Origin: a virus
Strand: one strand, 5' to 3'
Virus record (IMG/VR): IMGVR_UViG_3300020477_001932
Span: 10,257-74,256 of that record
DNA: 64,000 nucleotides
The position numbers and the translations under genes were made by a program. The notes beneath the pieces were generated by a model. It did not search any database. It worked only from the letters and a program-made list of their open reading frames with translations, and had not been told where the DNA came from. Below are positions 5,264 through 54,380 of this stretch, in pieces; position 1 is the stretch's first letter, and each line of letters opens with the position of its first letter.

Positions 5264-5689
5264 ATGAAAGTTAATATGATTAATAAAAGTGAAAATCCAT
5301 TACCAAAGTATGCAAAAGAAGGTGATGCTGGTATGGATATTTGTGCAGCTGAAGATGTTGCTATACCAGCATTTTGTTGGGAGGCAATTTTAACTGGAAT
5401 ATATATGCAACTTCCAGAAGGCTATGAATGTCAAATAAGATCAAGGTCTGGATTAGCTGCAAAACATGGTATTCAAGTTTTAAATAGTCCTGGCACTATT
5501 GATTCTGGTTATCGTGGTGAAGTTAAAGTTATATTAAAAAATAATGCATACGCACCTTATGATATTAAAAAAGGTGATAGAATTGCACAGATGGTTTTTG
5601 CACCTGTAACAACTGCATCTATTACAGAAGTTGCTGAACTTTCTGATTCAGAACGTGGTGAAGGTGGATTGGGGAGTACAGGAAAATGA
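5264..5689 (+). CDS. dut: dUTP diphosphatase (trimeric)
   Basis: AGMDI, RSRSGLA, PGTIDSGYRGE, GDRIAQ and RGEGGLGSTG motifs. Confidence 0.97.
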   Translation: MKVNMINKSENPLPKYAKEGDAGMDICAAEDVAIPAFCWEAILTGIYMQLPEGYECQIRSRSGLAAKHGIQVLNSPGTIDSGYRGEVKVILKNNAYAPYDIKKGDRIAQMVFAPVTTASITEVAELSDSERGEGGLGSTGK

Positions 5690-6210
5690 CTGATAAGAAA
5701 AAACATTATGTTGACAATGAGAAGTTTTTTACTGAAATGAAGAAATGGAAGCAAAGAGTACATGATGCTCGTGAGGTGGAAGATGATGATCCACCTACAA
5801 CTGAATATATGGGTGAGTGTTTTCTAAAGATTTGTGAACATCTAGCCATGCGTCCAAATTTTATTAATTACACATTCCGTGATGATTTGATTTCTGATGG
5901 AATCGAGAATTGTTTGCTTTATGCTCACAATTTCAATCCAGAAAAATCGAAGAATCCTTTTTCATATTTTACACAAATTATTCATCATGCTTACGTTAGG
6001 AGGATAGTAAAAGAAAGAAAATTAATGCACGTTAAATATCTGCTCGTTGAACGGGAAGGTATATTAGAAGAAATAAGTAAATCTGGTGAAAGCCATAAAA
6101 AAATGACTAAAGAATGGGTGGACTATTTAAGAACCCATGAAAAATATGCTGTAAATCCAACAAAGAAGAAAAAGAAGAAGAAGGCTGATTTAGAGTTGTA
6201 TTATAGATAA
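5686..6210 (+). CDS. gp55: Late-transcription sigma factor gp55
   Basis: HYVDNEKF, PNFINYTFRDDLISDGIENC and NPFSYFTQI motifs; C-terminal DLELYYR clamp-binding-like peptide. Confidence 0.95.
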   Translation: MTDKKKHYVDNEKFFTEMKKWKQRVHDAREVEDDDPPTTEYMGECFLKICEHLAMRPNFINYTFRDDLISDGIENCLLYAHNFNPEKSKNPFSYFTQIIHHAYVRRIVKERKLMHVKYLLVEREGILEEISKSGESHKKMTKEWVDYLRTHEKYAVNPTKKKKKKKADLELYYR

Positions 6211-6217
6211 AAAGTTT

Positions 6218-6250
6218 TTCCTTGTATTTTTAATTAATTTATAGTATAAT
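6218..6250 (+). promoter_or_regulatory. Early promoter upstream of the gp47/46 operon
   Basis: TTCC-TTGTAT-17bp-TATAAT. Confidence 0.75.
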
Positions 6251-6264
6251 TCTTGGAGTTATTA

Positions 6265-6501
6265 ATGGATTATCATGTTATGGCTAATGAAGAATGTCAA
6301 AGATGCAAACAATTTGAATTAGACCATAAATTTAAACATTGTTCTTTTACAGTAAGTCGTTTGGAAAATGGAAACGCATTACAAGAATTTGAATGTTCAA
6401 GATGTAAATTTAAATGGGAAAGGATATATGAAAGTAGCTCTAATTACAGATCAACATTTCGGGGGAAAACAGGACAGTCAGAACTTTTTAAATCACATTG
6501 A
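6265..6501 (+). CDS. Zinc-ribbon hypothetical protein overlapping gp47
   Basis: GGAG RBS; CQRC...CSRC. Confidence 0.55.
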   Translation: MDYHVMANEECQRCKQFELDHKFKHCSFTVSRLENGNALQEFECSRCKFKWERIYESSSNYRSTFRGKTGQSELFKSH

Positions 6502-9680: not shown

Positions 9681-10574
9681 ATGAAACTATTATTTCTATT
9701 TGCAAAGAGATTTATTGCTGGATATGACTTTGCATCTGCAATACCAGTTATCCAAAAACTTATGGATGATGGTTATAAAGTATCAGTTGATTATCTTGGT
9801 GAGTTGAGTGAGACCGAAGAAGATTGTGAAAGAGCTTACCAGCAATATTTAGAAATTGTAGATTACTATAAAAATAATAAAATTGATATATCCATTAAAC
9901 CATCACAATTAGGTTTAAAAATTAATAAAAATCTTTGTCAAAAGTTTATGGGTGGAATTGTTGGAAAGGCTTTTAGAAATGGTTTGACTATTCGTTTAGA
10001 TATGGAAGATGATTCTTTGATAGAAGATACGATAGACTTATGTTTAAGGTTGCATAAATTTTATCCGAATACTGGATGTGCGATACAAACTAATATGTAT
10101 CGAACTAAAGATGATCTAACCAAATTATTACAAAATAAAGTATCTATTAGATTAGTTAAAGGTGCATATAGAGGAAATAATAAAATAGCTTATCAGAATA
10201 AGAAACAGATTGAAAATTTGTTTTTGAAACAAAGCTTACAGATATTATCTGATCGTTGTCGTTCTTATTATCATTTAAAAGATAAAAGAACACCCATTCA
10301 TGCAATAGGTACACATGATAACAATATTATTAAACAGATTATTCATTATAGTAAAACGATTAATATTAAGAAAGAAGATTTTGATTTTGAATTTTTATAT
10401 GGAATTAGAAGGGACATTCAAACAGAGCTATTAGATTCAGGCTATAATGTTAGGCTTTATGTGCCATTCGGCCAACAATGGCTACCTTATACGCTTAGGC
10501 GGCTTAAGGAGTTTAAGAACTTAAAATTTGTATTTTTGAATATTTTTCGTGAATTTTTTTCCAAAAGACCTTGA
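9681..10574 (+). CDS. Monofunctional proline dehydrogenase (FAD, PRODH family)
   Basis: RFIAG, DYLGE, SIKPSQLG, RLDME, RLVKGAY, GTHD, LYGIR and YVPFG..W.PY..RRL.E motifs. Confidence 0.9.
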   Translation: MKLLFLFAKRFIAGYDFASAIPVIQKLMDDGYKVSVDYLGELSETEEDCERAYQQYLEIVDYYKNNKIDISIKPSQLGLKINKNLCQKFMGGIVGKAFRNGLTIRLDMEDDSLIEDTIDLCLRLHKFYPNTGCAIQTNMYRTKDDLTKLLQNKVSIRLVKGAYRGNNKIAYQNKKQIENLFLKQSLQILSDRCRSYYHLKDKRTPIHAIGTHDNNIIKQIIHYSKTINIKKEDFDFEFLYGIRRDIQTELLDSGYNVRLYVPFGQQWLPYTLRRLKEFKNLKFVFLNIFREFFSKRP

Positions 10575-18355: not shown

Positions 18356-18916
18356 ATGCCAAGAGAAATGTTGAAGTTGAGAAAAGGTGATTCGGCCATT
18401 ATGATTAAAGCAGATGGTTCTATTCAAATGGCAGGGTTGAATGATAGACCTTTGATAGATGAAAAGGGTGCAATTTCACCTTGTATTTTGTTTGCAGCTG
18501 CATGGGCAAAAAAAGATCAGAAGCTTTTAATGGATTTAGTAGAAAATTTTAAGACTTGTGTTAAAGAAGGATATTTCGGTCCTGAAGCGCAAAGTGATTA
18601 TAAAGCAATGGAAGCAGCTGCAGCGTCAGCAACAACTACACAGGCTGCTTCTGGTACTGTAACAAAAGAAGCATGGAATAAACATAAAGCAGAAGAAGAA
18701 CGTCTTAAAGCACTTGCTGCACAAGGACAGGATCCCCAAGTAAAACGCCAGATGGATGCTCTTAAAGCTGGTGCAAGAAAAACTACAACAAAACCATTTG
18801 AAGGACATTTAATAAAAGATACAGCTTCTGGAGCTGTAACTGTAGGTACTGCAATTATTGAAGAACAACCTAAACCCTTAACAAGTGAAGAAGCTGTAAC
18901 AAGGAGAGATTCGTAA
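18356..18916 (+). CDS. Hypothetical protein (paralog of 28569..29366)
   Basis: AAGGAG RBS; shares the KL...DSA....ADGS motif with the ORF at 28569. Confidence 0.7.
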   Translation: MPREMLKLRKGDSAIMIKADGSIQMAGLNDRPLIDEKGAISPCILFAAAWAKKDQKLLMDLVENFKTCVKEGYFGPEAQSDYKAMEAAAASATTTQAASGTVTKEAWNKHKAEEERLKALAAQGQDPQVKRQMDALKAGARKTTTKPFEGHLIKDTASGAVTVGTAIIEEQPKPLTSEEAVTRRDS

Positions 18917-19587
18917 TGAAAATAAGTAAAAGTACAATGGATGTATTAAAAAATTATTCAGAGATTAATCAGTCTATTGTTATCAAAGAAGGTAATGAGA
19001 TTAAAACAATTTCTGCATTGAAAAACATTCTTTCCAGAGCAGTTGTGAAAGAGAATTTTCCAAAAGATTTTGCAATTTATGATCTTCCAACTTTCATCGG
19101 CTTTCATTCTACTATGTCGGAGCCGGACTTTGAGTTTGGTGATGATTCCATGACATTAAAAGATGTAAACGGTAAAGGCAAATACTTTTATGCAGAACCT
19201 TCATTAGTTGTTACTCCACCTGAAAAGGGTGTTACTATGCCTGATTCAGATATTCGATTTGAATTAAAAAATGATGTTCTTGAAGATATAATCAAGAAAG
19301 CAAATGTTCTTAAGCTTGCAGATATTGGATTAAAGAGTTGTCCTAAATCTCAAGGCCTTTATCTATATGCTACTAATAAAAGTAATGATACTTCAAATGA
19401 TTATTCTGTTAAAGTAGGTGATGGTGCTACGAAGAAATTTAACATTATTTTCAAGAAAGATAATTTAAAGATTATCCCAGGAGATTATGATGTTACTATT
19501 GCAAATGGTATTTCTCATTTTAAAAATAAAGAGCTTGATTTGGAATACTGGATTGCATTAGAAGCTAGTAGTGATTATGGAGAATAA
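18916..19587 (+). CDS. gp45: Sliding clamp gp45
   Basis: MKISKSTMDVLKNYSEINQSI, FAIYDL, NLKIIPGDYDV and YWIALE motifs. Confidence 0.95.
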   Translation: MKISKSTMDVLKNYSEINQSIVIKEGNEIKTISALKNILSRAVVKENFPKDFAIYDLPTFIGFHSTMSEPDFEFGDDSMTLKDVNGKGKYFYAEPSLVVTPPEKGVTMPDSDIRFELKNDVLEDIIKKANVLKLADIGLKSCPKSQGLYLYATNKSNDTSNDYSVKVGDGATKKFNIIFKKDNLKIIPGDYDVTIANGISHFKNKELDLEYWIALEASSDYGE

Positions 19588-20407: not shown

Positions 20408-21352
20408 GTGATGAAAGATAATATATTATGGGTAGAAAAGTATCGACCCGATATGATTGACGATTGTATTCTGCCTAAATCAACAAAAGATATTTTCCAG
20501 TCTATTGTTGATTCGGGGGAGTTGCCGAATCTCCTATTATTCGGCACATCGGGCGTCGGAAAGACTACGGTTGCAAAGGCGCTATGTAATCAACTAAAAT
20601 GTGATTGGTTGATGATAAATGGCAGCGATGAAGGGCGTATGATAGATACGCTGAGAACTACTATAAGTAGTTATGCCTCAACCGTGAGTCTTTCCGGCGG
20701 TAAGAAAGTTATTATAATAGATGAAGCAGACTATATGAACAAGGATTCTGTCCAACCAGCTATGCGTGGTTTGATAGAAGAATTTTCAAATAACTGTCGT
20801 TTTATATTTACTTGTAATTATAAAAATAGAATTATTCCAGCTTTACATTCACGGTGTTCTGTTGTAGATTTTAGAATACCAAAAGAAGAAAAACCAGAGT
20901 TAGCACAAAAGTTTTCAGCAGTAGCATTAAGCATATTAGATGGTGAAGAAATAAAATATAAACCAGATATTATTGCACAACTTGTCGTCAAGTTTTTTCC
21001 AGATTTTAGAAGGGTTTTGAATGAGCTCCAGAAGCATTCAATCGGTGGAAATATTGATGCGAGTGTTTTGACCTCATCATCCAATGAAACATTTGATGAG
21101 CTGATGAATTATTTGAAGCATAAAGATTTTACTAAGATGAGGAAATGGGTAGCAGAAAATATTGACAATGACCATGTGAGATTATACCGTCAAGTCTATG
21201 ACTCCCTGTTTACAAAATTAGAAAAAAGTACAATACCTGGGGCTGTACTAACGATAGCCGATTATTCGTATAAGTCAGCTTTTGTTGCAGACCAGGAAGT
21301 TAATATGGTTGCGTGTTTAACTGAATTAATGATGAATTGTGAGTTTGTGTGA
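20408..21352 (+). CDS. gp44: Clamp loader large subunit gp44
   Basis: LWVEKYRP, GVGKTT, INGSDE, IIDEAD, LHSRC and FPDFRR motifs. Confidence 0.97.
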   Translation: MMKDNILWVEKYRPDMIDDCILPKSTKDIFQSIVDSGELPNLLLFGTSGVGKTTVAKALCNQLKCDWLMINGSDEGRMIDTLRTTISSYASTVSLSGGKKVIIIDEADYMNKDSVQPAMRGLIEEFSNNCRFIFTCNYKNRIIPALHSRCSVVDFRIPKEEKPELAQKFSAVALSILDGEEIKYKPDIIAQLVVKFFPDFRRVLNELQKHSIGGNIDASVLTSSSNETFDELMNYLKHKDFTKMRKWVAENIDNDHVRLYRQVYDSLFTKLEKSTIPGAVLTIADYSYKSAFVADQEVNMVACLTELMMNCEFV

Positions 21353-21365
21353 ATAAGGAGAATGA

Positions 21366-23459
21366 ATGAATAAAAATATAAATTTAGAACAACTGATAGC
21401 CAAGGCCATTACTAATGGATTAGCAGAACTACCACTAGAGATACGCGACCGTATAACACCTGGATTTTTACATAATATGTATACTTGTCAAAATAAGGTT
21501 GATGTTTCATTTAAGGACATTGTAGCTACGCAAAATACAAATGGAAATAGCTCAGATACAAAGAAAGATACAAAGAAAGATACAAAGAAAAAGGAAAAAA
21601 AGGAAATCAGCGCAGCGCAAAGAAAAATTACCCAGGATGCTACAGCAAGAATAGCTAAAGAAAGAGCTAATTGTTCTAAATATTATGACCTGTTTTGGAA
21701 GAAGAAAAAAATAAAAAAATTATTTGTAAAAGATGATAGTAAGTTAAGAAAAAGTGAAGGATGGTCAAGTCTTTATGGAATTGATTTTAGGTATCAAAGA
21801 GAAACTGATTTTACTGATGAAGAACAAATGATGGCATCTAGTATTGTTGGTAGTATATTGACAGGGACATTAGCTCTGCCCGAATTAATAGTTCGTGAAT
21901 ATTCTAAGGAATGGGAAACGGTCGAAAAGGATGTTAAAGAAAATTTTAAATTATTGGATGGTGAAGTAATTGATGGCCAGTTTAAATATGCAAAAAGTAT
22001 TTTTGGGTTTTTGAAAGGTCTGGTTAGATTAGAAGATAATATAGGTAAAGAACATCATTATGGTGATGTAAAACATCCCATTGGTGGAATGAATATAGAT
22101 GAATTAGCTCAATATGATAAAGATAATGGAACAGCCTATGTAGACAAATTTTTAGATTATGAAGTTCAATTATCTGTTTATTATGGTATTACTGGTGATT
22201 ATGCAGCCTTGGTTTATTTAAGGACAAATACTAGTCGTATAATGAAGTGGTGGGATATACTTAAAGCACATAATCACTTTTTATGTGATTTAACAAAGAA
22301 CGAAGTTGTTTTTGATCCTAATGAGCTTTCTTCTGATATTACTGAAATGCAGATGCCATGTGATTTCCTTAATACTCTAACAAAGATAAATGTTACAGAA
22401 ACAGGTAAATTTTGTAAAAATTTTGAGTTAAGAATGTCTTATATTAGAATTTGGATAGTTTCTTTCTATATTCAATATCATTTGGATATGGGAACAAAAA
22501 TAGATTCTTTACCTAAATGGAGTGATAGTGATATTACAGATTGGTGGCAATCTTCTCCGATTCTACATGATGAAAATCTTGTAAATAATATTTATGACCA
22601 TGTAAAAACAGCCTTTAGTTATGTTTCACATATTTTACTAACCGCAGATGAAAAAGATGTGAAAATATTTAAAGGAGAAAAAAAACAGGGTTGGGTAATT
22701 TCTTTGATTATGTCAATTCAATTCTTTTTGCATAAGAATAAAGATACTGTTGGTAAACCAAACCTATGGGATGGTCAAGTTTTTTTGAAAAGCTGGCTTG
22801 ATAGTGTTGATAAATTAACAGTAAAAAAAGATTCCACCGGTGCTATGTTGCCGTTTTATTTTGAGCATGAAATAAAGGAATTTATTAAAACAAATGATTG
22901 GTCATTATCAGCTACCAAAAACGTAATATATGATAATCAATTTGTGGGAGCTTATTGGAAGAATGCTTTACAAGCACATTGTTCTGTATCACATACAAAA
23001 AAATCAGATGCTTTAGAAAAAGATACCGTAATAGGTATTCCTGGCCTTTATTGGCAGTTGAATCATTGTTTTATTAGACCAAATAAAGACTTTGATAAAG
23101 ATAAACACAATCCAAAGGATAAATATGCAGATTGGGGAGTTGTTGTATTAGATGAAGTAAGAACACCACCTTTGTCTCAAAGACAAATTATTTTTAAGTT
23201 GCAAAATGGGTATTGTCCTTTTTCTGGTAACCAAATTGATTTAGAACAATGTAATGCACATGATATACCATATAGTGAGGGTGGTTCTTATATGCACACT
23301 AACTGTTATGGTTGTCTTGGTATTTATAATACTAGTTCTAAGAAAACATTTCCAGTTTTGTTTGAAGAAATACATGGAGAAGCCGGTGTTACTTTAGAAG
23401 AATATCGCAGAAGAATAAAAGATGGTGAAATTGTTTGGGGCATAACAAAAAAAATATAA
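21366..23459 (+). CDS. Divergent DUF262 (ParB/Srx-like) plus C-terminal HNH-like protein, GmrSD/SspE-like architecture
   Basis: RYQRE...SIVGSILTG..LPELI...EVIDGQFK (cf. DGQQR), YLRTN (cf. FxRxN); C-terminal QNGYCPFSG...HDIPYSEGG...NC..C...N. Confidence 0.6.
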   Translation: MNKNINLEQLIAKAITNGLAELPLEIRDRITPGFLHNMYTCQNKVDVSFKDIVATQNTNGNSSDTKKDTKKDTKKKEKKEISAAQRKITQDATARIAKERANCSKYYDLFWKKKKIKKLFVKDDSKLRKSEGWSSLYGIDFRYQRETDFTDEEQMMASSIVGSILTGTLALPELIVREYSKEWETVEKDVKENFKLLDGEVIDGQFKYAKSIFGFLKGLVRLEDNIGKEHHYGDVKHPIGGMNIDELAQYDKDNGTAYVDKFLDYEVQLSVYYGITGDYAALVYLRTNTSRIMKWWDILKAHNHFLCDLTKNEVVFDPNELSSDITEMQMPCDFLNTLTKINVTETGKFCKNFELRMSYIRIWIVSFYIQYHLDMGTKIDSLPKWSDSDITDWWQSSPILHDENLVNNIYDHVKTAFSYVSHILLTADEKDVKIFKGEKKQGWVISLIMSIQFFLHKNKDTVGKPNLWDGQVFLKSWLDSVDKLTVKKDSTGAMLPFYFEHEIKEFIKTNDWSLSATKNVIYDNQFVGAYWKNALQAHCSVSHTKKSDALEKDTVIGIPGLYWQLNHCFIRPNKDFDKDKHNPKDKYADWGVVVLDEVRTPPLSQRQIIFKLQNGYCPFSGNQIDLEQCNAHDIPYSEGGSYMHTNCYGCLGIYNTSSKKTFPVLFEEIHGEAGVTLEEYRRRIKDGEIVWGITKKI
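21555..21590 (+). repeat. 12-bp tandem repeat x3 in frame (DTKK)3
   Basis: GATACAAAGAAA repeated three times. Confidence 0.9.
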
Positions 23460-23461
23460 TG

Positions 23462-23494
23462 TTCCTTGTATTATAAACTTTTTTATGGTACACT
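23462..23494 (+). promoter_or_regulatory. Early promoter for the 7-deazaguanine operon (leaderless)
   Basis: TTCC-TTGTAT-17bp(TGG)-TACACT; 6 nt separate the -10 box from the queE ATG. Confidence 0.78.
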
Positions 23495-23500
23495 TATAAT

Positions 23501-24430
23501 ATGAATAAATTAAGATACAGCGAAATGTTTTATTCCCTCCAAGGAGAAGGAAGGTACGTTGGTGTGCCTTCCGTTTTCCTTCGGCTGTTTGGATGTAATT
23601 TTGAATGTCGTGGCTTCGGTCAAGATAGAGATAAATCCAAATGGTTACCTGAAGATCAAATGCCTCATAATACAGATTATCCAGATGTAAAATCTATCGT
23701 AGATTTACCAGTTCCTCAACTTGGTTGTGATAGCTCTTTTTCTTGGGGAAAGAAATGGGGCCACCTAGCCAATTATGAGGATATTGATACTATCGTTAAA
23801 AAAATGAATGAGTTTACAAATTGGTATGGACAAAAAGAAAGGATGGAGGGGGACATATCAGCTGCACTTAAACAAGATGATGCTGTTCATTTAGTTATTA
23901 CTGGAGGAGAGCCGTTGTTAAAAGGATTTCAGTCAGGTGTATTTGAATTAATGACACATCCAGATTTATTAACACGTTATGTTACCATTGAGACAAATGG
24001 TACGCAAATATTTTCTCCATATGATTATTTTGCAGGTCATAATTATATGTTTCCAGATCATCATAGAAAGTTTGGTGTAAATAAAAATGCAGGTATAACA
24101 TGGTCTGTTTCACCAAAGCTTTCTAATAGTGGTGAAAGTTGGAGTGAAGCAATTAGACCAGAAGCACTTGCATCATATAATGCTTGGCCTTATTCTTATT
24201 TGTATCTCAAGTTTGTTATTAGGGATGAATATGATTTGGTAGAAGTAGAACAAGCTATTCGTGAATATGATAAAGCTGGTGTTAATATATGTGCAGTTTA
24301 TTTGATGCCTGAGGGTGCAGTAGATCATCAAATGGAAGAATTAAAAATAGCAAAGATTGCATTAAAACATGGATATAAGTATAGTCCTAGACTACATTTA
24401 AATCTTTTTGGAAATGAGTGGGGGACATAA
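23501..24430 (+). CDS. queE: 7-carboxy-7-deazaguanine synthase QueE (radical SAM)
   Basis: EMFYSLQGEG, FLRLFGCN, ITGGEPL, IETNGT, SVSPKL and SPRLH motifs. Confidence 0.9.
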   Translation: MNKLRYSEMFYSLQGEGRYVGVPSVFLRLFGCNFECRGFGQDRDKSKWLPEDQMPHNTDYPDVKSIVDLPVPQLGCDSSFSWGKKWGHLANYEDIDTIVKKMNEFTNWYGQKERMEGDISAALKQDDAVHLVITGGEPLLKGFQSGVFELMTHPDLLTRYVTIETNGTQIFSPYDYFAGHNYMFPDHHRKFGVNKNAGITWSVSPKLSNSGESWSEAIRPEALASYNAWPYSYLYLKFVIRDEYDLVEVEQAIREYDKAGVNICAVYLMPEGAVDHQMEELKIAKIALKHGYKYSPRLHLNLFGNEWGT

Positions 24431-24888
24431 TGTCACAAGCATTAAAGAAAGGCAGAAGTGGACAAAGAGGTATTAAGAATGCTGATAGAGTAAATGATAC
24501 TGAAATGTTTTGTTCTGAGTATAAAGATGAAAATGGAAAGCAGGTTCGTCTTGGAAAAATCAGGCTTGCACATGAAATCAATGATGGTTTAAAACATATT
24601 GCACATGATTTAAATACTACTAAAGCAGAACTAGTAAGAACATTATTTGTTGATTTTATACAGGATTATAAAGAAGCTAAAGCTACTGGTGCTATACAAA
24701 AGTTTACACCAGCACAAACTATTGAAAGATATTTAACCAGTAGATATGAGTTCTTCCAATTATTCAATGAACTTAAAAAACAAACAAAATATTTGGAGGA
24801 TTCTAAATCACCAGAAGTTAAAATTTTATCAAGACAAATTAGTATAATAGCAGAAATGTTAAACCTTACAAATAAGAATGTGATATGA
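24430..24888 (+). CDS. Ribbon-helix-helix-like protein
   Basis: IRLAHEINDGLKHIAHDLNTTKAELVRTLF matches the RHH strand-helix-helix pattern. Confidence 0.55.
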   Translation: MSQALKKGRSGQRGIKNADRVNDTEMFCSEYKDENGKQVRLGKIRLAHEINDGLKHIAHDLNTTKAELVRTLFVDFIQDYKEAKATGAIQKFTPAQTIERYLTSRYEFFQLFNELKKQTKYLEDSKSPEVKILSRQISIIAEMLNLTNKNVI

Positions 24889-25352
24889 ATAAATATAATT
24901 ATTATTATGACCAGTATTATAAAGATATAACAGAGATTGTTGAAAGACACGAAGCAACACCAAATTTGCACGTTGTCGGTGTTTATCGTGGTTCATTACC
25001 AATAGCTACTCATTTAAGCAATGCTCTTGAGTGTCCTATGAGTATTATTAAATTTCAGTCGCGAGACGGTTCTGATGATAAAGCAGAATGGATGTTAAAT
25101 TTAACAGATGATGAAAGCTTAAGGCCTGAAAAGTCTAAGCAGTTTTTTCCAACATTATTGGTTGTGGATGATGTTTATGATACTGGAAAAACTTTTAGGG
25201 CTATTAAAGAATTACCAGAGCTTAAACAAAATCCAGATTATCATTGTATTGCATTGTTTGGTAATGAAAATAATGATGGTGTAACTTATATCCATGAGCA
25301 ACTATATAGATGGATAGTGTATCCTTGGGAAAGAGTAGGAGGTGCTATGTGA
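24885..25352 (+). CDS. Type I phosphoribosyltransferase (Gpt/Hpt-like)
   Basis: VGVYRGSL loop, LLVVDDVYDTGKT PRPP-binding motif, WIVYPWE C-terminus. Confidence 0.88.
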   Translation: MNKYNYYYDQYYKDITEIVERHEATPNLHVVGVYRGSLPIATHLSNALECPMSIIKFQSRDGSDDKAEWMLNLTDDESLRPEKSKQFFPTLLVVDDVYDTGKTFRAIKELPELKQNPDYHCIALFGNENNDGVTYIHEQLYRWIVYPWERVGGAM

Positions 25353-25792
25353 AATATGAGAGTACGAAAACGTATGGTAATGATAGAGGTTTGAGTTGTT
25401 GTTTTCGTCAATGGAAAGCAACTAGTCATTGTAAATATTTACATGGTTATAGTTTAGGTTTTAGATTTACATTTGAAACAGATGAATTAGATGGTAGAAA
25501 TTGGGTTTATGATTTTGGTAATTGTAAATGGATTAAAGTGTTTCTTGAACAAACATTTGACCATAAGCTTTTAATAGATAAAAATGATCCTGATATAGAA
25601 CATATATATAAAATACATGATGAAAATATGGCACAAGTTCTTACAATGGATGGTGTTGGTTGTGAGAAGTTTGCTGAGTATGTTTATAATTATGTTTTAC
25701 GACAAGTTCAAGAAGAAACAGGAGGACGAGTTAATTTGAAAAGTGTTGAGTGTTTTGAACATGGTTCAAATAGTGCAATATATTATGGTTAG
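25349..25792 (+). CDS. queD: 6-carboxy-5,6,7,8-tetrahydropterin synthase QueD
   Basis: C..LHGY, VYDFG, FDHK, GCEKFAE and VECFEH.SNSA motifs; GTG start overlapping the PRTase stop. Confidence 0.88.
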   Translation: MKYESTKTYGNDRGLSCCFRQWKATSHCKYLHGYSLGFRFTFETDELDGRNWVYDFGNCKWIKVFLEQTFDHKLLIDKNDPDIEHIYKIHDENMAQVLTMDGVGCEKFAEYVYNYVLRQVQEETGGRVNLKSVECFEHGSNSAIYYG

Positions 25793-25809
25793 TGAGAGGA
25801 GCTTATATA

Positions 25810-26478
25810 ATGAAAATTTCAGAAAAGATAAAAAATGCATTAGACAAGGGTTACTTAGCTAATGATACAATATATGATGTTATTAATGATGAAGATAGAA
25901 TAGAGTTAATAGAAGAAGTTAAAGAGGCATTTCAAGGTGTATTGGATGCTTTAGTTATAGATACAAAGAATGACCACAATACACAAGAGACAGCAAAACG
26001 TGTAGCAAAAATGTTTGTCAATGAAATATTCCGTGGCAGATATTATCCCCCGCCTTGTGTTACTGCATTTCCAAATGCAAAGCAGTATGACCAGATTTAT
26101 ATGTCTGGCCCCATAACAATCAATTCAACGTGTGCGCACCATTTCCAAGCTATTGCTGGAAAAGCATATGTTGGAATCTTTCCGGGAAAGAAAGTTATTG
26201 GATTATCCAAGTTTAATCGTATGGTTGATTGGGTTGCATCCAGACCACAAATTCAAGAAGAAATGACAGAACAAATAGCAGATATGATACAAGAAGAAAC
26301 TGAAGCAAAGGGTGTAGCTGTTATTGTTAAAGCAGAACATTTTTGTATGACGGCAAGAGGTGTTAAAGAACATGAAAGTGATATGGTAACATCTGTTGTG
26401 CGTGGTATTTTTCGTGATGAACCAGCAACAAAAGCTGAGTTCTTTTCTTTGTTAAGTAATATGAAAGGGATGCAATAA
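25810..26478 (+). CDS. folE: GTP cyclohydrolase I
   Basis: ETAKRVAKM, STCAHH, IGLSKFNR, RPQIQE and HFCMTARGV motifs. Confidence 0.96.
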   Translation: MKISEKIKNALDKGYLANDTIYDVINDEDRIELIEEVKEAFQGVLDALVIDTKNDHNTQETAKRVAKMFVNEIFRGRYYPPPCVTAFPNAKQYDQIYMSGPITINSTCAHHFQAIAGKAYVGIFPGKKVIGLSKFNRMVDWVASRPQIQEEMTEQIADMIQEETEAKGVAVIVKAEHFCMTARGVKEHESDMVTSVVRGIFRDEPATKAEFFSLLSNMKGMQ

Positions 26479-27260
26479 TGGTAAACATGGTAACTAGTGG
26501 TAAACAAGAAGCTACTGGTAAATCTGTTTTATTATATTCTGGTGGCATGGATAGTTTGATGTTTGACTATTTAATGAAGCCTGATGTATTATTGTATATT
26601 CCGACTGGTAGTGAATACGAAATGATAGAAAGCAGTAAAATACGTTTACTTGGTAAATATGGTTATTTGGATGAAGATAAATTAGTTGTTTTACCTCGTG
26701 TTTTAAATTTAAGTAAGTTTGAACGTGATGATGCAATCGTTCCAAATCGTAACGCACATTTAATGTTGTTAGCTTCTATGTATGGTGAAGATTTGATTCT
26801 TGGAAGTGTTCAAGGTGATAGATCATTCGATAAGGATCCTATTTTTTATCAGAAAATGACAGACTTGTTAAATCATATGTGGAAAGAACAGCATTGGACT
26901 GAGGAACGTGTTTTTAAAGTTAGCTCTCCATATAAAGATAAAACAAAGACGGAGATTGTTAAAGAGTATCTGGAAAAGGGTGGTAGTGCAGACGCATTAC
27001 TACTTTCATGGAGTTGTTATGATCCACAATCAAGATATTTGTTAGACCCCGAAAGGGCTTGTGGATGGTGTAAACCATGTTTTCGTAAATGGATTTCACT
27101 TCATAATAACAATATAAGTATTCCAGAAGATTATTATGCAAACAATCCATGGGAAGCACCATGGCTTGAAAAGTTAATTCCTTCTGTACTTGAAAAGAAT
27201 TATCGAGGAAAAGAAGATTATGATTGGTGTGATGCCTTAACAAGTAAAGGAGTTTTATGA
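26478..27260 (+). CDS. queC: 7-cyano-7-deazaguanine synthase QueC-like
   Basis: SGGMDS PP-loop, PNRN, K.EIV, SWSCY and CGWCKPC Zn site. Confidence 0.85.
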   Translation: MVNMVTSGKQEATGKSVLLYSGGMDSLMFDYLMKPDVLLYIPTGSEYEMIESSKIRLLGKYGYLDEDKLVVLPRVLNLSKFERDDAIVPNRNAHLMLLASMYGEDLILGSVQGDRSFDKDPIFYQKMTDLLNHMWKEQHWTEERVFKVSSPYKDKTKTEIVKEYLEKGGSADALLLSWSCYDPQSRYLLDPERACGWCKPCFRKWISLHNNNISIPEDYYANNPWEAPWLEKLIPSVLEKNYRGKEDYDWCDALTSKGVL

Positions 27261-28507
27261 AAGACGCGATTTACATTCCAGCATATAGTGATGGTTTAAT
27301 GAATTTACTGGAAAAAGATGATGCTGATGCAAGTGAAAAATATCAGTCAAGTTTTGATAAAAAGAAATCATTAAGAATATATAAGAAAGATAGTGATTCG
27401 TATTTTAAGAATTTCTTTATGTTAATCTCAGCTGGTACACAACATAATAAAAAAGATTTTAGAAAAACTATTCAAGCAGAAGATGCAAAGATATTTGTTG
27501 ATAGTGGAGGATACCAGTTAGCACATTCCACAGTTAATCATAAAAAGTACACAGATGATATAGCTTTGAAATGGTCTGAAGAAAATGGTGATATATTTCC
27601 AATTTTAGATAGGCCAACATTTACGCTTGGAATGATGAGAGATGGAAAACCAGTATCGCCATATAAAGATTATCAAGAATGTTTGGATTTGTCAGTAAAT
27701 TCTGCAAAACATTATTCAGAAAATCGTACACGTTCAGATGCAAAAATCTTAAATGTTATACAGGGCCAAACGATACCACAAGTTAAGAAGTGGTATGATG
27801 AAATAAAGAAGTATGAGTTTGAGGGTTGGGCATATGGTGGTACAAGAGGCAATTTGGGTCGTATTGTTCCAGCAATATTGTTTTTAATTAATAACAAAGA
27901 ATTTGATAGACCTAAGTGTGATTTATTTCATATATTTGGTGTAACATCAAATGAAAGTATGATTTATTTTCAGTATCTTCAAATGTTACTAAATAAACAT
28001 AATATTGATATGCAGATAACATATGATTCAACATACTGGAATCGTACTGTTGTTTTTGGTGGTTACTTTACAGAGGCTAGATATATTACTGGAACTGGTA
28101 TGGCTTCTATGAATTGGCCTAATACAATTAGTTATGAAAATCTTTCAAAAGATTTTAAATTACCTTGTCATTGTCCTATATGTAAAGATTGCACAGATGT
28201 TTATTCTTTATTTAATCAATATAAGACAAATAAAGAGGGCAAAGAAGTGGTAGTTTTTAGAGATTTTAATATGACAATGGCATTTCATAATTTATATTTA
28301 CAGTTAGAATATCTTGAAAATATTACAAGAATTTTAAAATCAGGCATGAAAGAGATTTATTTAGAGTTTTTTCCAAAGAAAATTTATGATAATTTAATCT
28401 TTTTAGAAGGAGTTTTTAATAATATGTCAAAAGATTGGGAAGGAGAGCTAAATAAACGATTTCTAAAGGCTGAGGATCTTAATACATTAGAGGGTTTTTT
28501 TGGATGA
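27257..28507 (+). CDS. TGT-fold guanine transglycosylase, DpdA-like
   Basis: FVDSGGYQ, ILDRP, VIQG, GWAYGG, HIFGV and YDS motifs; CHCPIC...HN Zn site; located in the que operon. Confidence 0.82.
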   Translation: MKDAIYIPAYSDGLMNLLEKDDADASEKYQSSFDKKKSLRIYKKDSDSYFKNFFMLISAGTQHNKKDFRKTIQAEDAKIFVDSGGYQLAHSTVNHKKYTDDIALKWSEENGDIFPILDRPTFTLGMMRDGKPVSPYKDYQECLDLSVNSAKHYSENRTRSDAKILNVIQGQTIPQVKKWYDEIKKYEFEGWAYGGTRGNLGRIVPAILFLINNKEFDRPKCDLFHIFGVTSNESMIYFQYLQMLLNKHNIDMQITYDSTYWNRTVVFGGYFTEARYITGTGMASMNWPNTISYENLSKDFKLPCHCPICKDCTDVYSLFNQYKTNKEGKEVVVFRDFNMTMAFHNLYLQLEYLENITRILKSGMKEIYLEFFPKKIYDNLIFLEGVFNNMSKDWEGELNKRFLKAEDLNTLEGFFG

Positions 28508-28540
28508 TATGATTAATTTTTTTCGATACCTTGTGAGAGT

Positions 28541-28548
28541 TATAAATA
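28541..28548 (+). promoter_or_regulatory. Possible late promoter
   Basis: TATAAATA 20 nt upstream of ATG 28569. Confidence 0.5.
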
Positions 28549-28568
28549 ATTATGTAAAGGGGGTAACA

Positions 28569-29366
28569 ATGATGGAAGAAGAAAACAAACCAAAACGACC
28601 TAGTGATTGGGCTAAAGAAGAAAAGGCTAAACAACCAGAAAAAAAACCATTAGAAGAACAAAAGTTTGATAAAAATGGTAAGCTTTTTGTTAAACTTACT
28701 ATGGATGATAGTGCATTGGTAGTTCGTGCTGACGGTTCTGTTGAGTTAATTAGCCATGACTTAGAAAACTCAGATGATGGTTATGTTGGTGATGTTGAAG
28801 ATTTAAATAAAACTTTTTCTTTGGTGTTAGCATTAGCTTCTGCATTAGAGAATGAAGATTTGTATAATCGTATATTCCATAACCTTAATATGACATTGAT
28901 GAAAAAATGGGATAATATGCCTGATGATATTAAACAACAAATTGTAAAAAAGAGAAATAAAATTGATAACAGTCGAAATTCTCAAGAAGAGCTAGAAAAG
29001 AAGAAACGTGTTGAGGAATTTCGTAAACGAATGAACAAATATAAAGAAACTTTCTTAGATGATTTGGATGCAGAAAAAGAAAGACTGAAACAAGATATGC
29101 GTGATGAAGAAGATTTCCATAAACGGTATGGTAGAGATTTTGGTGCTGAACAAGAATATCCAGATCACTTAATGCCAGAAGATATTGATCCTTTTATGAA
29201 TGGCCCAGGTGGAGATATGGAATCCAGACCAAGAAAAAAGATAAAGAAAAAGAAAGTTTCTTTGGATAGTCTAAGAGGTGTTGATTGGGACCCATACCAT
29301 GAAACATTAAAAACTAAAAAGGGAAAATGGCGTTTAGATTATCCCCCTGATGATGAGGAGGAATAA
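28569..29366 (+). CDS. Hypothetical protein (paralog of 18356..18916)
   Basis: AAGGGGG RBS; KLTMDDSALVVRADGS motif; charged coiled-coil. Confidence 0.7.
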   Translation: MMEEENKPKRPSDWAKEEKAKQPEKKPLEEQKFDKNGKLFVKLTMDDSALVVRADGSVELISHDLENSDDGYVGDVEDLNKTFSLVLALASALENEDLYNRIFHNLNMTLMKKWDNMPDDIKQQIVKKRNKIDNSRNSQEELEKKKRVEEFRKRMNKYKETFLDDLDAEKERLKQDMRDEEDFHKRYGRDFGAEQEYPDHLMPEDIDPFMNGPGGDMESRPRKKIKKKKVSLDSLRGVDWDPYHETLKTKKGKWRLDYPPDDEEE

Positions 29367-29743
29367 TGAATCCGTTTGAGTATGCTAATGAGTTGATAAC
29401 AAAAGATAAGTATGATGAAGAAGTACCAGATAGAAAAGATTATAAACCATTTCTGATTAATCGTACTTTATCATATCATAATGATTTAATACATTATGTC
29501 AATTATTTGAATCAATATCCAGATGTAAATGATAAACTGCATTATGATTTTCTTAATTTGTCCATAGCAAAGAAAAAGAGACCTAAGAAATGGTGGGTCA
29601 AGGGCAAGAAGTATGAGAACATGGAAGTTATAAAAGAGTATTATAAGTACAGTACAGATAAGGCAATTACAGCCTTGTCAGTTTTATCTGATAAAGATAT
29701 TAAAAACATCAAAAATAAGCTCTTCAAGGGCGGAGGAAAGTAA
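29366..29743 (+). CDS. gp62: Clamp loader small subunit gp62
   Basis: Y.PFLINRTLSY, YDFL, IKEYYKYS..KA..AL and KGG motifs; upstream of regA. Confidence 0.9.
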   Translation: MNPFEYANELITKDKYDEEVPDRKDYKPFLINRTLSYHNDLIHYVNYLNQYPDVNDKLHYDFLNLSIAKKKRPKKWWVKGKKYENMEVIKEYYKYSTDKAITALSVLSDKDIKNIKNKLFKGGGK

Positions 29744-30832: not shown

Positions 30833-33346
30833 ATGAAATTCTATACCTACGCAAGTCAAGTATTCAATAAAATCTATATTCGTGAAATAGATAATAAGGG
30901 TGAAGAATATTCTGAAACATTTGATTTCAAACCAACTCTTTATGTTCCAGCCCCAAAAGAAAAAGCAAATTTTAAAACATTAGATAATCGGCCTTTGGCT
31001 GATATAAAGTTTCCTTCAATAAAAGAGTGTAAAGATTTTATTGACCAATATTCAGGTGTTACCAATTATAAGATTTTTGGTAATACAAATTATGTATTTC
31101 AGTTTTTATCTGAGCAATACGCTGATGATGTTCAATGGGATAAATCCAAAATATTAATATATACTCTTGACATTGAGGTTGCTTCAGATGATGGCTTTCC
31201 AGATATTCGTTTGGCCAATGCACCAATAACAGCAATAACAGTTCATAACAGCATTAACGATACATATTATGTTTTTGGTACTGGTGATTATATACCAGAT
31301 AAAAATATTAAGTATTTTCGTTTAGATAATGAAGAAGAAATGATGCAAGTTTTCTTGGATTGGTGGAAAGATAATCCGCCTCATATCATTACTGGATGGA
31401 ATTGTAAATTCTTTGATATTCCATACATTGTCAATCGAATGAAATATCTTGATATTGAAGCCAAGTATCTTTCACCAATTAAAAGAGTAGTCGATAAGAA
31501 TGTAGTTATTGCAGGCCGTGATAATATGTATTATACGATTATCGGCATATCTACTCTGGATTATATTGATTTATATAAAAAATATACTTACAAGGCAAGA
31601 GAATCATATCGTCTGGATTATATAGGCCAAGTGGAGCTTGGCATGGGAAAAATTACAGATGATGAAATGCAAGGGTATGATTTATATAAAACAGATTATC
31701 AAAAGTTTATAGAATATAATATAAAAGACGTTGAGATTGTTAAAAAACTAGACGATAAGATGAAATTATTGGATTTGGTCATAACTATAGCCTATGAATC
31801 CAAGATTAATTTTGAAGATGTATTTTCACCAGTTAAGACCTGGGAAACTATTATTTACAATTTCTTGAGAAAACAAAATATAGCTGTTCCACAGGAACGG
31901 CATAAGGGAGAAACAAAAGGTGGCATTGAGGGTGGATATGTAAAAGAACCTCATGTTGGTTTACATAAATGGGTAGTATCATTTGACTTAAATTCTCTTT
32001 ATCCACATTTAATTCAGCAATACAATATCAGTCCAGAAATGATTTCAGATGATGAAGTTCTCAAGATAAAATATAAAGATGGAGTCAAAGGCTTACTGAA
32101 TAAGCAATTAGATACAAAATATTTAAAAGAACATCAAATGACGTTGACTCCAAATGGTCAACATTTCTCAACAAAACGTCAAGGATTTCTTCCAAAGTTA
32201 ATGAAATCTATGTATGATGAAAGAGTTATTTACAAAAAGAAAATGCTTGAAGAAGAGCAGAGATTGGAGGATGGAAATTATAAAAATAAAGAAGAAGTTG
32301 TAAATAATATAGCAAAATTTAATAATGTCCAGATGGCTAAAAAGATACTCTTAAATAGCGCCTATGGTGCATTGGCCAATCAGTATTTCTTGTATTATTC
32401 TCCTGAACAGGCAGAAGCCGTTACTATGTCTGGTCAGTTGTCGATTAGATGGATCGAAAAGTATATAAATAAATTCATCAACGATTTACTCAAAACAGGA
32501 GATAGAGATTATGTTATCGCATCGGATACAGATAGCATTTATATCACGTTTGATAAGTTGGTTAATGAAGTGTGGGGAGAGGGAGCTGAAACTGAGAAAG
32601 TTATCATGTTCTTGGATAAAATGTGCAAAGATAGGATTGAACCATATATTGATGAGTGTTATAAAGTTCTTCATTCGTATGTAAATTCATACGAGCAGAA
32701 GATGGTGATGAAAAGAGAGTCGATAGCTGACAAAGGTATCTGGACAGCTAAGAAACGATACATTTTAAATGTATATGATTCTGAGGGTGTAAGATACAAA
32801 GAACCTAAATTAAAGATAATGGGTATTGAGAGTGTCAGAAGTTCTACCCCTCAATGGTGTCGGGAGAACATACAATCGTTGATAAAGACAATTATCAATA
32901 CAGATGAGCAGACAGTAATAAAAACTATTGAAGATTATAGAGAAACTTTCAAGACTTTGAAGTTTAGTGATATTGCATTTCCAAGATCAGTCAAAGGCTT
33001 GAGTAAATATAAATCTTCAAAAGATATTTACATTAAAGCTACTCCAATTCATGTTCGGGGTACTTTATTGTATAACCATCATTTAAAGGAGAAAAACTTA
33101 GTAAAGAAATATCAATTAATCCGTGATGGAGAAAAGATTAAGTTTGCATATCTGAAAGAGCCAAACATACTCGGTGAGAATGTGATTGCTATTGCAACTG
33201 TCTTGCCGAGTGAGTTTGGTTTAGAGAAATATATAGATTATGACTTACAATTCGATAAATCGTTTCTGCAGCCAATTAAGAATATATTGGATGTTATTGG
33301 ATGGAAGTCAGAGAATATGAGTTCGTTAGAATCATTTTTTGGGTGA
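30833..33346 (+). CDS. gp43: Family B DNA polymerase gp43
   Basis: DIEV exonuclease motif, SFDLNSLYP, KILLNSAYG, SDTDS and KKRY motifs; C-terminal SLESFFG clamp-binding peptide. Confidence 0.98.
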   Translation: MKFYTYASQVFNKIYIREIDNKGEEYSETFDFKPTLYVPAPKEKANFKTLDNRPLADIKFPSIKECKDFIDQYSGVTNYKIFGNTNYVFQFLSEQYADDVQWDKSKILIYTLDIEVASDDGFPDIRLANAPITAITVHNSINDTYYVFGTGDYIPDKNIKYFRLDNEEEMMQVFLDWWKDNPPHIITGWNCKFFDIPYIVNRMKYLDIEAKYLSPIKRVVDKNVVIAGRDNMYYTIIGISTLDYIDLYKKYTYKARESYRLDYIGQVELGMGKITDDEMQGYDLYKTDYQKFIEYNIKDVEIVKKLDDKMKLLDLVITIAYESKINFEDVFSPVKTWETIIYNFLRKQNIAVPQERHKGETKGGIEGGYVKEPHVGLHKWVVSFDLNSLYPHLIQQYNISPEMISDDEVLKIKYKDGVKGLLNKQLDTKYLKEHQMTLTPNGQHFSTKRQGFLPKLMKSMYDERVIYKKKMLEEEQRLEDGNYKNKEEVVNNIAKFNNVQMAKKILLNSAYGALANQYFLYYSPEQAEAVTMSGQLSIRWIEKYINKFINDLLKTGDRDYVIASDTDSIYITFDKLVNEVWGEGAETEKVIMFLDKMCKDRIEPYIDECYKVLHSYVNSYEQKMVMKRESIADKGIWTAKKRYILNVYDSEGVRYKEPKLKIMGIESVRSSTPQWCRENIQSLIKTIINTDEQTVIKTIEDYRETFKTLKFSDIAFPRSVKGLSKYKSSKDIYIKATPIHVRGTLLYNHHLKEKNLVKKYQLIRDGEKIKFAYLKEPNILGENVIAIATVLPSEFGLEKYIDYDLQFDKSFLQPIKNILDVIGWKSENMSSLESFFG

Positions 33347-33350
33347 AGTT

Positions 33351-34541
33351 GTGAAGATTTATATAGAAGATGAGTTTATTAATCTTGTAAGAAAAGATAT
33401 AAATCCATTGTCTTTTAAAGATTTTGTTCAAACAAAACAAATAAGCAATTTGTGGGATAAATTAGAATTTGATGATATTAGGATAAAGTCTTTAAAAACA
33501 AAAGAAGAATTTTATAAATGGTGTTATGATTTCATTCATAATGACGAGCCACTTAAAGTATATTTTAGAAAAAGATTATCATATAATACACAATCAGTAC
33601 ATGAAGAAGTACCAATACAAAATATAAAAAATATAAAAGATTCTATAATACATATATCGAATAATTCTAGGTATATAAAAAATATAAATTTACCAAGTAT
33701 TTTAGATTGTAGAGCATTTGATGGTAAAAGTATAAAAAATATATATAAAGATGCACTTGAACTTGGTAAGATAGATAGATGTATAACAATGCCATCTGTT
33801 TTTAAAGATTCTTCTAATGGAAATTATGATACGTTTGTGGTTACAATGAAAACTATTTCTGGGCAAATGTCTATTTTTAGTCCAGTAATTTATAATATGT
33901 TATTAAATAAGGTAAATGGATATTTAGAAAAAAAAGATAAATGTAAAATACTTATTCCATCTGCTTCGTGGGGTAGTCCTATTATAGCTACTTTGAATGA
34001 AGAAAAATATTCAGATATTCATATAGTTGATGTTCAACAAGCAGTTTTAAATGTTTGTGAGGATATTTTTAATGATTATGTAGATAAGCCTTTTCGTAAG
34101 TTATCTGGCATTAAACCCCCATACAATTTAAAAACATTTTGTGTACCATCTGAAAATATGACTGAGGTTATTGATAATAATTATGATACAGTATTCTTTT
34201 GTCCGCCTTATTATGATTTAGAGCTTTATGGTGGTAGTGATTTACAATCAACTACTTTATATCAAACGTATGAAGAATGGTTAGATTTATATTGGAGAAA
34301 AACAGTTAATGAATGTTATAAAGTTTTAAATACTGGTGGAATGTTTTGTTTTGTGATGGGTAGGCTTTGTAGAGGATATGAAATGGGTAATGATATGAAA
34401 AAAATTGCAGAAGAAAAATTTAATTTAATTGATGAAATTAAAATATTGCCCCCTAATGAATCAACTAGGGATAGCAATAAAATTGAAAAGTATGAAATAT
34501 GTTACATTATGAAAAAGGAGATAGATTATGGCAGTAAATAA
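33351..34541 (+). CDS. Putative amino-type (N4C/N6A) DNA methyltransferase with divergent motifs
   Basis: ILIPSASWGS (SAM motif I-like) and FFCPPYYDLELY (motif IV-like); L..GG.FCF. Confidence 0.7.
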   Translation: MKIYIEDEFINLVRKDINPLSFKDFVQTKQISNLWDKLEFDDIRIKSLKTKEEFYKWCYDFIHNDEPLKVYFRKRLSYNTQSVHEEVPIQNIKNIKDSIIHISNNSRYIKNINLPSILDCRAFDGKSIKNIYKDALELGKIDRCITMPSVFKDSSNGNYDTFVVTMKTISGQMSIFSPVIYNMLLNKVNGYLEKKDKCKILIPSASWGSPIIATLNEEKYSDIHIVDVQQAVLNVCEDIFNDYVDKPFRKLSGIKPPYNLKTFCVPSENMTEVIDNNYDTVFFCPPYYDLELYGGSDLQSTTLYQTYEEWLDLYWRKTVNECYKVLNTGGMFCFVMGRLCRGYEMGNDMKKIAEEKFNLIDEIKILPPNESTRDSNKIEKYEICYIMKKEIDYGSK

Positions 34542-54377: not shown

Positions 54378-54380
54378 AAT

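Follow-up and report, generated by a model that had tools for sequence, protein, structure and literature searches.

Probable coupling of DNA modification to replication in an uncultured marine T4-like phage: a clamp-type tail on a DpdA-like guanine transglycosylase

Why does a guanine transglycosylase encoded by a T4-like phage end in nearly the same peptide as that phage's DNA polymerase? The question is raised by a 64,000-nucleotide stretch of DNA (IMG/VR virus record IMGVR_UViG_3300020477_001932, positions 10,257 to 74,256), referred to here as the window, which is part of a 74-kb record, has 32.5% G+C and derives from an uncultured marine T4-like phage. An open reading frame (ORF) at 27257-28507 encodes a DpdA-like member of the tRNA-guanine transglycosylase (TGT) superfamily; DpdA enzymes insert 7-deazaguanines into DNA (PMC6884629, PMC10516641). 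An initial annotation, made from the letters of the window, had proposed that the C-terminal tail of this protein lets it ride the gp45 sliding clamp and modify nascent phage DNA at the replication fork. The best explanation for the evidence presented below, and one that we consider likely as a whole, is that ORF 27257-28507 encodes a DNA-directed, DpdA-type guanine transglycosylase supplied by its own FolE-QueD-QueE-QueC preQ0 pathway, and that its tail NTLEGFFG would dock on the phage gp45 clamp, as the polymerase tail does. The features on which this reading depends are the following.

27257-28507, + strand: DpdA-like guanine transglycosylase (TGT superfamily), 416 amino acids; Pfam TGT, 30 bits against a cut-off of 26.3
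28463-28504, + strand: polar linker (residues 403-408) and putative docking peptide NTLEGFFG (residues 409-416; nucleotides 28481-28504)
30833-33346, + strand: gp43-type family-B polymerase (PolB), 837 amino acids; Pfam DNA_pol_B, 3.8e-30, with an exonuclease domain
5686-6210, + strand: gp55 late sigma factor; phrog_234, 8.6e-54
18916-19587, + strand: gp45-type sliding clamp, 223 amino acids, the proposed docking partner; phrog_223, 8e-69

The shared C-terminal tail

The three termini reported in the initial annotation, and their positions, were all confirmed in the ORFs. The transglycosylase ends in ...AEDLNTLEGFFG followed by the stop codon, and its last seven codons plus the stop (TLEGFFG and stop) occupy 28484-28507. 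PolB ends in ...NMSSLESFFG, with SSLESFFG at nucleotides 33320-33343 and the stop codon extending the gene to 33346, and gp55 ends in ...KKADLELYYR. The PolB tail corresponds in both position and sequence to the clamp epitope of T4 gp43, ASLDFLFG (PMC6212786), which lies within residues 889-EKASLDFLFG-898 and binds a hydrophobic pocket of gp45 (PMC6212786). T4 DNA ligase carries an internal LDFLF loop and has a dissociation constant of ~10.7 µM for gp45 (PMC6212786, PMC2988020), and the tails of gp43, gp55, and gp33, which are carried on variable linkers, can replace one another (PMC6212786, PMC2988020). The background invoked by the initial annotation, that is, gp45-binding tails and base exchange by DpdA, is therefore backed by published work (PMC6212786, PMC2988020, PMC6884629, PMC10516641). 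The window clamp aligns over its full length to T4 gp45 (1CZD; E of 5e-17) and also to RB69 gp45 (1B77/1B8H). By homology to T4 gp43, SSLESFFG is the clamp epitope of the window polymerase; the DpdA peptide NTLEGFFG would be expected at that same gp45 site.

The tail is separate from the folded enzyme. In an AlphaFold2 model built on 33 homologs (mean predicted local distance difference test [pLDDT] score of 90.7; predicted template modeling score of 0.90), the protein is confidently modeled to about residue 402, and residues 408 to 416 have a pLDDT of <50, indicating that they are unstructured.

To express how unusual the shared tail is, its frequency was compared with expectation. Given the amino-acid composition of the window, 0.06 occurrences of [ST]L[ED]xFF would be expected in its proteome (20,780 residues); two were seen, both at a C-terminus, and the looser pattern L[ED]x[FYW][FYW]x{0,2}$ marks exactly gp55, DpdA, and PolB among the 95 window ORFs, with 0.04 expected. 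A homolog search yielded 120 proteins and 57 loci. In the window and these 57 related loci, where ORFs were called with a simple longest-ORF caller (1066 ORFs, 222,017 residues), the core motif occurs 48 times; every one of these lies at the extreme C-terminus, with no internal occurrence, and shuffled proteins give 0.03 occurrences. The 48 motifs belong only to PolB, DpdA, and a 290-amino-acid protein encoded just upstream of DpdA in loci L044-46.

It is extremely improbable that the likeness of the tails is functionless, arising by chance, through a DNA-level constraint (an overlapping downstream start or ribosome-binding site), or by recombination of 3′ ends. In both the DpdA and the PolB gene, the 3′ end is indeed T-rich and overlaps the start of the following ORF. 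However, the chance of the motif is ~2e-5 per protein, and differences in codon choice between the two genes (gag/gaa, ggt/tca, gga/ggg) show that the tails are not a DNA repeat. Synonymous variation is also seen in the tail codons of homologs (Ser as TCA/TCT/TCG/AGT, Leu as TTA/TTG/CTT, Glu as GAA/GAG, and Phe as TTT/TTC), and the DNA downstream of these variants is unrelated; selection therefore acts on the peptide, and repeated DNA, ribosome-binding sites, and coupled start codons are ruled out as the source of the likeness. The tail is also kept at 32% identity and co-varies across lineages, as described below, and the functionless explanation is thus already contradicted by the codon, chance, and co-variation results together.

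Conservation, loss, and co-variation of the tail

The conserved core of the DpdA homologs ends at F402, in the sequence RFL, after which every homolog has a polar linker of differing length and sequence, followed by a short hydrophobic/acidic terminus. In the window's clade the polymerase-type tail takes the forms TLE[GS]FFG, ATLEGFF, and ASLEGFFGG, with SSLAGF[IM] and ADLLKFM as weaker versions. Nearly all deep-branching relatives (31 to 38% identity) keep a polymerase-type tail after unrelated linkers (SSLESFFGE, SLENFFGG.., QSLDSFF, ASLEEFF, QSLDEFF, VSLENLF, and NSLEGFFG). In a maximum-likelihood tree of the core, from which linker and tail had been removed (the tree comes from a quick search, the careful search being unfinished), the lineages with polymerase-type tails are paraphyletic at the base, and the tail is therefore ancestral; it has been retained over path lengths of >3 substitutions per site. 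The PolB tail, (S/T)LE(S/D/I)FF(G), hardly varies across all related loci.

To look beyond the window's lineage, 1.84 billion representative proteins were searched with a DpdA profile, giving 1453 matches with an E of ≤1e-3 and 218 with an E of ≤1e-30. An aromatic pair or [LM]F is present in the last eight residues of 96/131 DpdA proteins (the full-length proteins among the top 150 profile matches), compared to 214/1980 other ORFs of the same loci (odds ratio, 22.6). The DpdA tails of diverse representatives fall into distinct flavors, and 135 further loci were fetched for two of these. The polymerase tails found together with these DpdA tails were as follows.

Second lineage in general: PolB ..NKFFSFG(K) and ..GKFFAF; DpdA ..FNKFFKF and ..FNQFFE
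L086: PolB ESFFEF; DpdA ETFFDFN
L129: PolB NANKFFKF; DpdA NFNKFFKF
L143: PolB TKKINSLFKF; DpdA SKKINNLFKF
L174: PolB KMDGLFW; DpdA KMDALFD
Jumbo-type loci L191, L200, L209, L213, L215, and L217: PolB TFD[SD]LF[ST]FG; DpdA FNELF[SE]F.. and NNLFTFG

Five flavors (SLExFF, xKFFxF, KKINxLFKF, KMDxLF, and FxxLFxF) thus switch jointly in DpdA and PolB. Tail similarity was scored as the ungapped BLOSUM62 score over the last 10 residues, and polymerases were permuted among loci without regard to shared ancestry. For 85 unique DpdA-PolB pairs, drawn from several phage lineages, the mean cognate similarity was 17.07, compared to 13.58±0.45 after permutation, and 0/2000 permutations reached the cognate value. 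PolB was the single best C-terminal match to the DpdA tail within its locus in 46/85 loci, where 5.7 were expected. The co-variation with cognate gp43 tails that the initial annotation had looked to is therefore clear between lineages, across the five flavors, and absent within the window's own lineage, whose polymerase tail does not vary.

Some other ORFs of the second lineage have ends like those of DpdA and PolB. In L143, a 230-amino-acid ORF ends in YEKINNFFKF, which resembles the DpdA and PolB tails, and is a candidate clamp client. In L092, L103, L145, and L148, ORFs of 190 to 230 amino acids end in (N/S)E(F/Y)YEF(V/I)(K/R)(G/S)Y and are likewise candidate clamp clients.

The genomic neighborhood provides evidence that is independent of the tails and indicates the same partner. 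In the other lineages, 57 of the 60 loci of at least 15 kb contain a gp45-family clamp gene; this gene directly adjoins DpdA in 84/110 unique loci (median gap, 13 bp), often with gp44 next to it. These data bear on the possibility that the DpdA and PolB tails share a partner other than the clamp, such as the single-strand-binding protein, the helicase loader, or the helicase, which we regard as quite unlikely. In its favor, docking on the clamp rests on comparison, and the DpdA tails of some clades are unlike that of the polymerase. Against it, the PolB tail matches, in position and sequence, the gp45-binding epitope demonstrated for T4 gp43; the same pattern occurs in gp55, itself an established clamp client; and the clamp gene is the immediate neighbor of DpdA in the 84 loci of other lineages just mentioned. 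The clamp-docking reading of the initial annotation is consistent with tail disorder, conservation, co-variation, and clamp-gene linkage alike, and the predicted docking is strongly supported by five independent kinds of comparative evidence.

Several observations weigh against this reading or limit its reach. Several internal clades of the window's wider lineage have replaced the tail (with ANAFDV/ANALDV, QAPSVFDL/QAPSLFNL, APSLM[EA]IG, A[PSTA]xLF, GLG[ILV], VL[EDA]GI, or STPAELSFK), while their polymerases keep SLESFF. These replaced tails are the main evidence against a universal requirement, and it follows that the tether is dispensable, retargeted, or tolerant of very different peptides. 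The cultured distant homologs PA5oct gp168, Peetri_00102, and GR7B_00174, which served as a negative control and come from jumbo or large (about 200 to 290 kb) phages, have unrelated or basic tails and so provide no model system in culture; the PA5oct polymerase has a clamp-type tail (..HFDSLFGW), though that of gp168 is unrelated. Many jumbo-type proteins of ~500 amino acids also have no polymerase-like tail. Considering these cultured and jumbo-type homologs, the tail is an add-on module and not part of the fold. The co-variation statistics are inflated by shared ancestry, which the permutations ignore, so that the independent joint switches number about five rather than 85; about five would still agree with the conclusion. 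Finally, the DNA substrate and the inserted base are inferred from context (and, for the substrate, from the clamp-type tail), because the enzyme has no close characterized relative and the DpdA3 of the T4-like Campylobacter phage CP220 (100% dADG DNA) could not be located. In sum, the conservation of the motif in homologs, on which the initial annotation had staked its proposal, holds for the window's clade and for nearly all deep relatives, in which it is ancestral, and breaks down in several internal clades that have other hydrophobic tails.

Among the replacement tails, QAPSVFDL, QAPSLFNL, QATALF, EAPSLF, and APSLMEIG recur in separate DpdA clades (P0022-P0053, L008, L023, L024, L040, and P0116-P0120). 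We take the QAPSVFDL-type tails to resemble bacterial beta-clamp motifs of the QxxLF type, and a switch to the host clamp is a candidate origin of these alternative tails.

Two loci have clamp genes in other arrangements. In L008, the gp45 gene (5821-6489) lies two genes downstream of DpdA, after a gene for a 447-amino-acid QueC-related protein, and its product is 51% identical to the window clamp, while PolB, UvsX, and RegA are 84 to 90% identical. As to the idea of a second, dedicated clamp paralog in L008, there is one clamp only on the 42-kb fragment, and the clamp is fast-evolving everywhere. In CP220 (FN667788 100966-110185; L067), QueC, a polymerase ending in ..ETLEEW, a sliding clamp, and FolE lie within 9 kb.

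The transglycosylase and its gene neighborhood

The assignment of ORF 27257-28507 was examined by structure, motif, and context. The AlphaFold2 model is a TGT (beta/alpha)8 barrel, a fold that Foldseek confirms: its top 50 matches are all tRNA-guanine transglycosylases (E of ~1e-9; template modeling score of ~0.5; 12 to 16% identity). Across the 33 sequences, down to 21% identity, DSGG (D82-S83-G84-G85) and D257-S258 are invariant, and the Zn site C304, C306, C309, and H344 (CxCxxC...H) is at least 90% conserved; these residues were equated with the TGT catalytic residues by motif, not by superposition. A profile of the protein had no match among solved structures in the PDB, and the PADLOC models of bacterial Dpd proteins did not match it. 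The best relatives in cultured phages are hypothetical proteins with at most 25% identity, from jumbo Pseudomonas phages and large (~200 kb) Pseudomonas and Vibrio phages. A tblastn search of cultured phages with the DpdAs of L044, L054, and P0230 found no close relative, and phiST and immuto gave no tblastn match. In CP220, neither a homolog-alignment profile nor Pfam TGT found DpdA3 (the best hhalign candidate, at 53542-54573, had a probability of 0.25%), and, with DpdA3 unlocated, no other ORF shares the polymerase tail TLEEW under the pattern used. Judged by its sequence, the window DpdA is thus a divergent clade of the TGT superfamily, and it is labeled DpdA-like because of its fold, its catalytic motifs, and the co-encoded preQ0 pathway.

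The remaining replication and deazaguanine genes of the neighborhood are the following.

20408-21352, + strand: gp44-type clamp-loader large subunit; Pfam AAA, DNA_pol3_delta2, and Gp44_lid
23501-24430, + strand: QueE-like radical-SAM enzyme (7-carboxy-7-deazaguanine synthase); NCBIfam QueE, 1e-11 to 1e-13
24885-25352, + strand: purine phosphoribosyltransferase-like protein, in the cluster; Pfam Pribosyltran, 3e-12, with weak HGPRT/XPRT NCBIfam matches
25310-25792, + strand: QueD (PTPS family); Pfam PTPS, 5e-17
25792-26478, + strand: FolE, GTP cyclohydrolase I; Pfam GTP_cyclohydroI, 7.6e-52
26478-27260, + strand: QueC-like ATPase (preQ0 synthase type); Pfam QueC, 3.7e-12
29366-29743, + strand: gp62-type clamp-loader small subunit; phrog_225, 1.9e-30

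The QueE-like, QueD, FolE, and QueC-like genes lie directly upstream of DpdA, and the same set is found in related loci. The QueE models cover only the N-terminal part of the 23501-24430 protein, with scores below the cut-offs, and a QueE-like gene next to the deazaguanine cluster is conserved in relatives. For the QueC-like protein, the NCBIfam QueC and QatC matches are below the cut-offs. From this gene set, the inserted base is expected to be preQ0.

These data make it very unlikely that the enzyme is a tRNA-guanine transglycosylase of the queuosine or archaeosine type, with phage or host tRNA as its substrate and a tail that has nothing to do with that substrate. Such an enzyme would account for the best Pfam, NCBIfam, and structural matches, all of which are tRNA-guanine transglycosylases, and for the lack of a match to bacterial DpdA models. 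However, the identity to tRNA TGTs is only 12 to 16%, there is no PUA or other tRNA-binding extension, and the gene is part of a replisome module and has a clamp-type tail, with clamp genes adjacent in many lineages. In addition, all examined phages that have preQ0-pathway genes and a TGT homolog had modified DNA (PMC6884629, PMC10516641). A DNA-directed enzyme also agrees with published systems: like DpdA1-4 and bacterial DpdA, the window protein has the TGT fold, DSGG, the catalytic Asp, and the Zn site (PMC6884629, PMC10516641, PMC10164549), and, as in phage DpdA systems, FolE, QueD, QueE, and QueC are encoded alongside it, so that exchange of G for a 7-deazaguanine would be expected. It differs from the published DpdA enzymes in being very divergent and in bearing a clamp-type tail, which those papers do not describe.

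The gene order in the window is gp45, a 2OG-Fe(II) oxygenase, gp44, a 697-amino-acid protein of unknown function, QueE-like, a 156-amino-acid protein of unknown function, purine phosphoribosyltransferase-like, QueD, FolE, QueC-like, DpdA, a 288-amino-acid protein of unknown function, gp62, RegA, two small ORFs, gp43, a DNA-methyltransferase-like protein, UvsX, gp59, and gp41. The closest cultured relatives by polymerase are T4-like cyanophages (gp43 identity of ~50%). The deazaguanine cluster (21366-29366) sits between gp44 and gp62, which are neighbors in relatives including L044, L052, and L055; in L048, one small ORF lies between them. Therefore, the whole deazaguanine cluster has been inserted between the two clamp-loader genes.

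Several neighbors deserve mention in their own right. The phosphoribosyltransferase-like protein, which is conserved in the cluster, could salvage the guanine freed by exchange toward GTP, the precursor of preQ0. No family matches the 288-amino-acid protein (28500-29366). Its gene comes immediately after DpdA in nearly all close relatives, and the protein always ends in an acidic, proline-containing sequence (..DYPPDDEEE, ..ADAPPDEEEE, or ..LDQPPPEEN); it may be a partner of DpdA. The 400-amino-acid DNA-methyltransferase-like protein (33339-34541; weak match to Pfam N6_N4_Mtase; PADLOC MTase_II and mad2) overlaps the end of the polymerase gene and has no clamp-type tail. In L052 (14291-18287), the polymerase is split into ORFs of 510 and 352 amino acids, ~1.4 kb apart, and the gap holds a 333-amino-acid ORF in the reverse orientation, which suggests insertion of a mobile element.

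Proposed mechanism and its reach

Under the clamp-docking reading, the transglycosylase would consist of the barrel, a flexible linker, and the eight-residue hydrophobic/acidic peptide NTLEGFFG, of the PolB-epitope type, which would sit in the hydrophobic pocket of the trimeric gp45 (18916-19587). Clamps loaded by gp44/62 would carry the enzyme along phage DNA. Because the gp45 trimer has three sites, DpdA could travel with the polymerase on one trimer; alternatively, it could act on clamps left on the lagging strand or behind the fork, or on clamps loaded at nicks. In freshly made duplex, G would be exchanged for a 7-deazaguanine (preQ0-type) base. Tethering would raise the local concentration of the enzyme, permit scanning along DNA, and confine the enzyme to DNA that bears the phage clamp. 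Processivity, selectivity for phage DNA, timing at the fork, and modification of virion DNA are consequences that we infer from this scheme.

The architecture is that of known clamp clients. As in DpdA, the T4/RB69 gp43, gp55, and gp33 epitopes are short hydrophobic/acidic peptides at the extreme C-terminus on divergent flexible linkers; Geiduschek and Kassavetis described the gp55 clamp epitope on a variable linker, which is the same architecture as in the DpdA homologs (PMC2988020). The window sequence S-L-E-x-F-F-G parallels S-L-D-F-L-F-G of T4, and the window clamp is a gp45 homolog (PDB 1B8H, 1CZD). Whereas the described T4-type clients are the polymerase, transcription factors, and ligase, the client predicted here is a DNA base-exchange (hypermodification) enzyme.

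An alternative, which we consider unlikely, is that the tail binds the clamp for regulation and not for catalytic tethering. DpdA could compete with gp43, gp55, and gp33 for clamp sites, thereby timing replication or late transcription, or it could use clamps loaded at nicks well after replication, as in T4 late transcription. gp45 does have several competing clients with interchangeable tails (PMC2988020), deazaguanine insertion has been described as post-replicative (PMC10516641), and gp55 of the window bears a related tail. However, the substrate of DpdA is DNA that the clamp encircles, which makes catalytic tethering the simpler account, and a second probable DNA-modifying enzyme, the glycosyltransferase-like protein of L044-46, bears the tail as well.

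Eukaryotes and archaea tether DNA-modifying and base-excision enzymes, such as the PIP-box-bearing DNMT1 and UNG2, to PCNA. In these systems, as proposed here for DpdA, a base-acting enzyme is recruited to new duplex by a short clamp-binding peptide. They differ from DpdA in clamp family and enzymes, and they methylate or excise, as opposed to installing a modified base by transglycosylation. The clamp as a tool-belt has been reviewed (PMC9690074).

Modification with 7-deazaguanine is an important counter-defense of phages against restriction enzymes and CRISPR. Hutinet et al. (2023) proposed that insertion is post-replicative, and they report that DpdA3 replaces all guanines, with no mechanism given (PMC10516641). 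Modification levels range from <0.1% to 100% among DpdA subfamilies, a range that the published view of a free-standing, post-replicative enzyme cannot explain (PMC10516641). If the clamp-docking reading is correct, recruitment to clamps would provide local concentration, movement along DNA, and discrimination between phage and host DNA, and base-exchange enzymes would form a new class of clients of the sliding-clamp tool-belt. No paper that connects DpdA or deazaguanine to a sliding clamp, to PCNA, or to a clamp-binding motif turned up in full-text literature searches, in line with the initial annotation, whose author knew of no such tethering. What is new here is the clamp-type tail on DpdA; both DpdA enzymes and clamp-binding tails were already known. 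The comparative evidence is firm enough to warrant simple biochemical tests.

Clamp tethering may also be general and ancient in the very large, almost entirely uncultured DpdA clade (1453 clusters with an E of ≤1e-3) and extend to the glycosyltransferase-like neighbor, making the clamp a tool-belt for co-replicative hypermodification; we give this broader view somewhat less than an even chance. If it holds, tethering could explain how guanine replacement becomes complete or nearly so in some phages while DNA without the phage clamp is left untouched.

The glycosyltransferase-like neighbor is the 290-amino-acid protein of L044 (7645-8517), L045, and L046 (7616-8485). It is encoded two genes upstream of DpdA, following a cytidylyltransferase-like gene, and ends in ..AFSLDNFF. 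In Atlas features and structure it resembles GT-A family-2 glycosyltransferases, and it may be a second clamp-tethered DNA-modifying enzyme.

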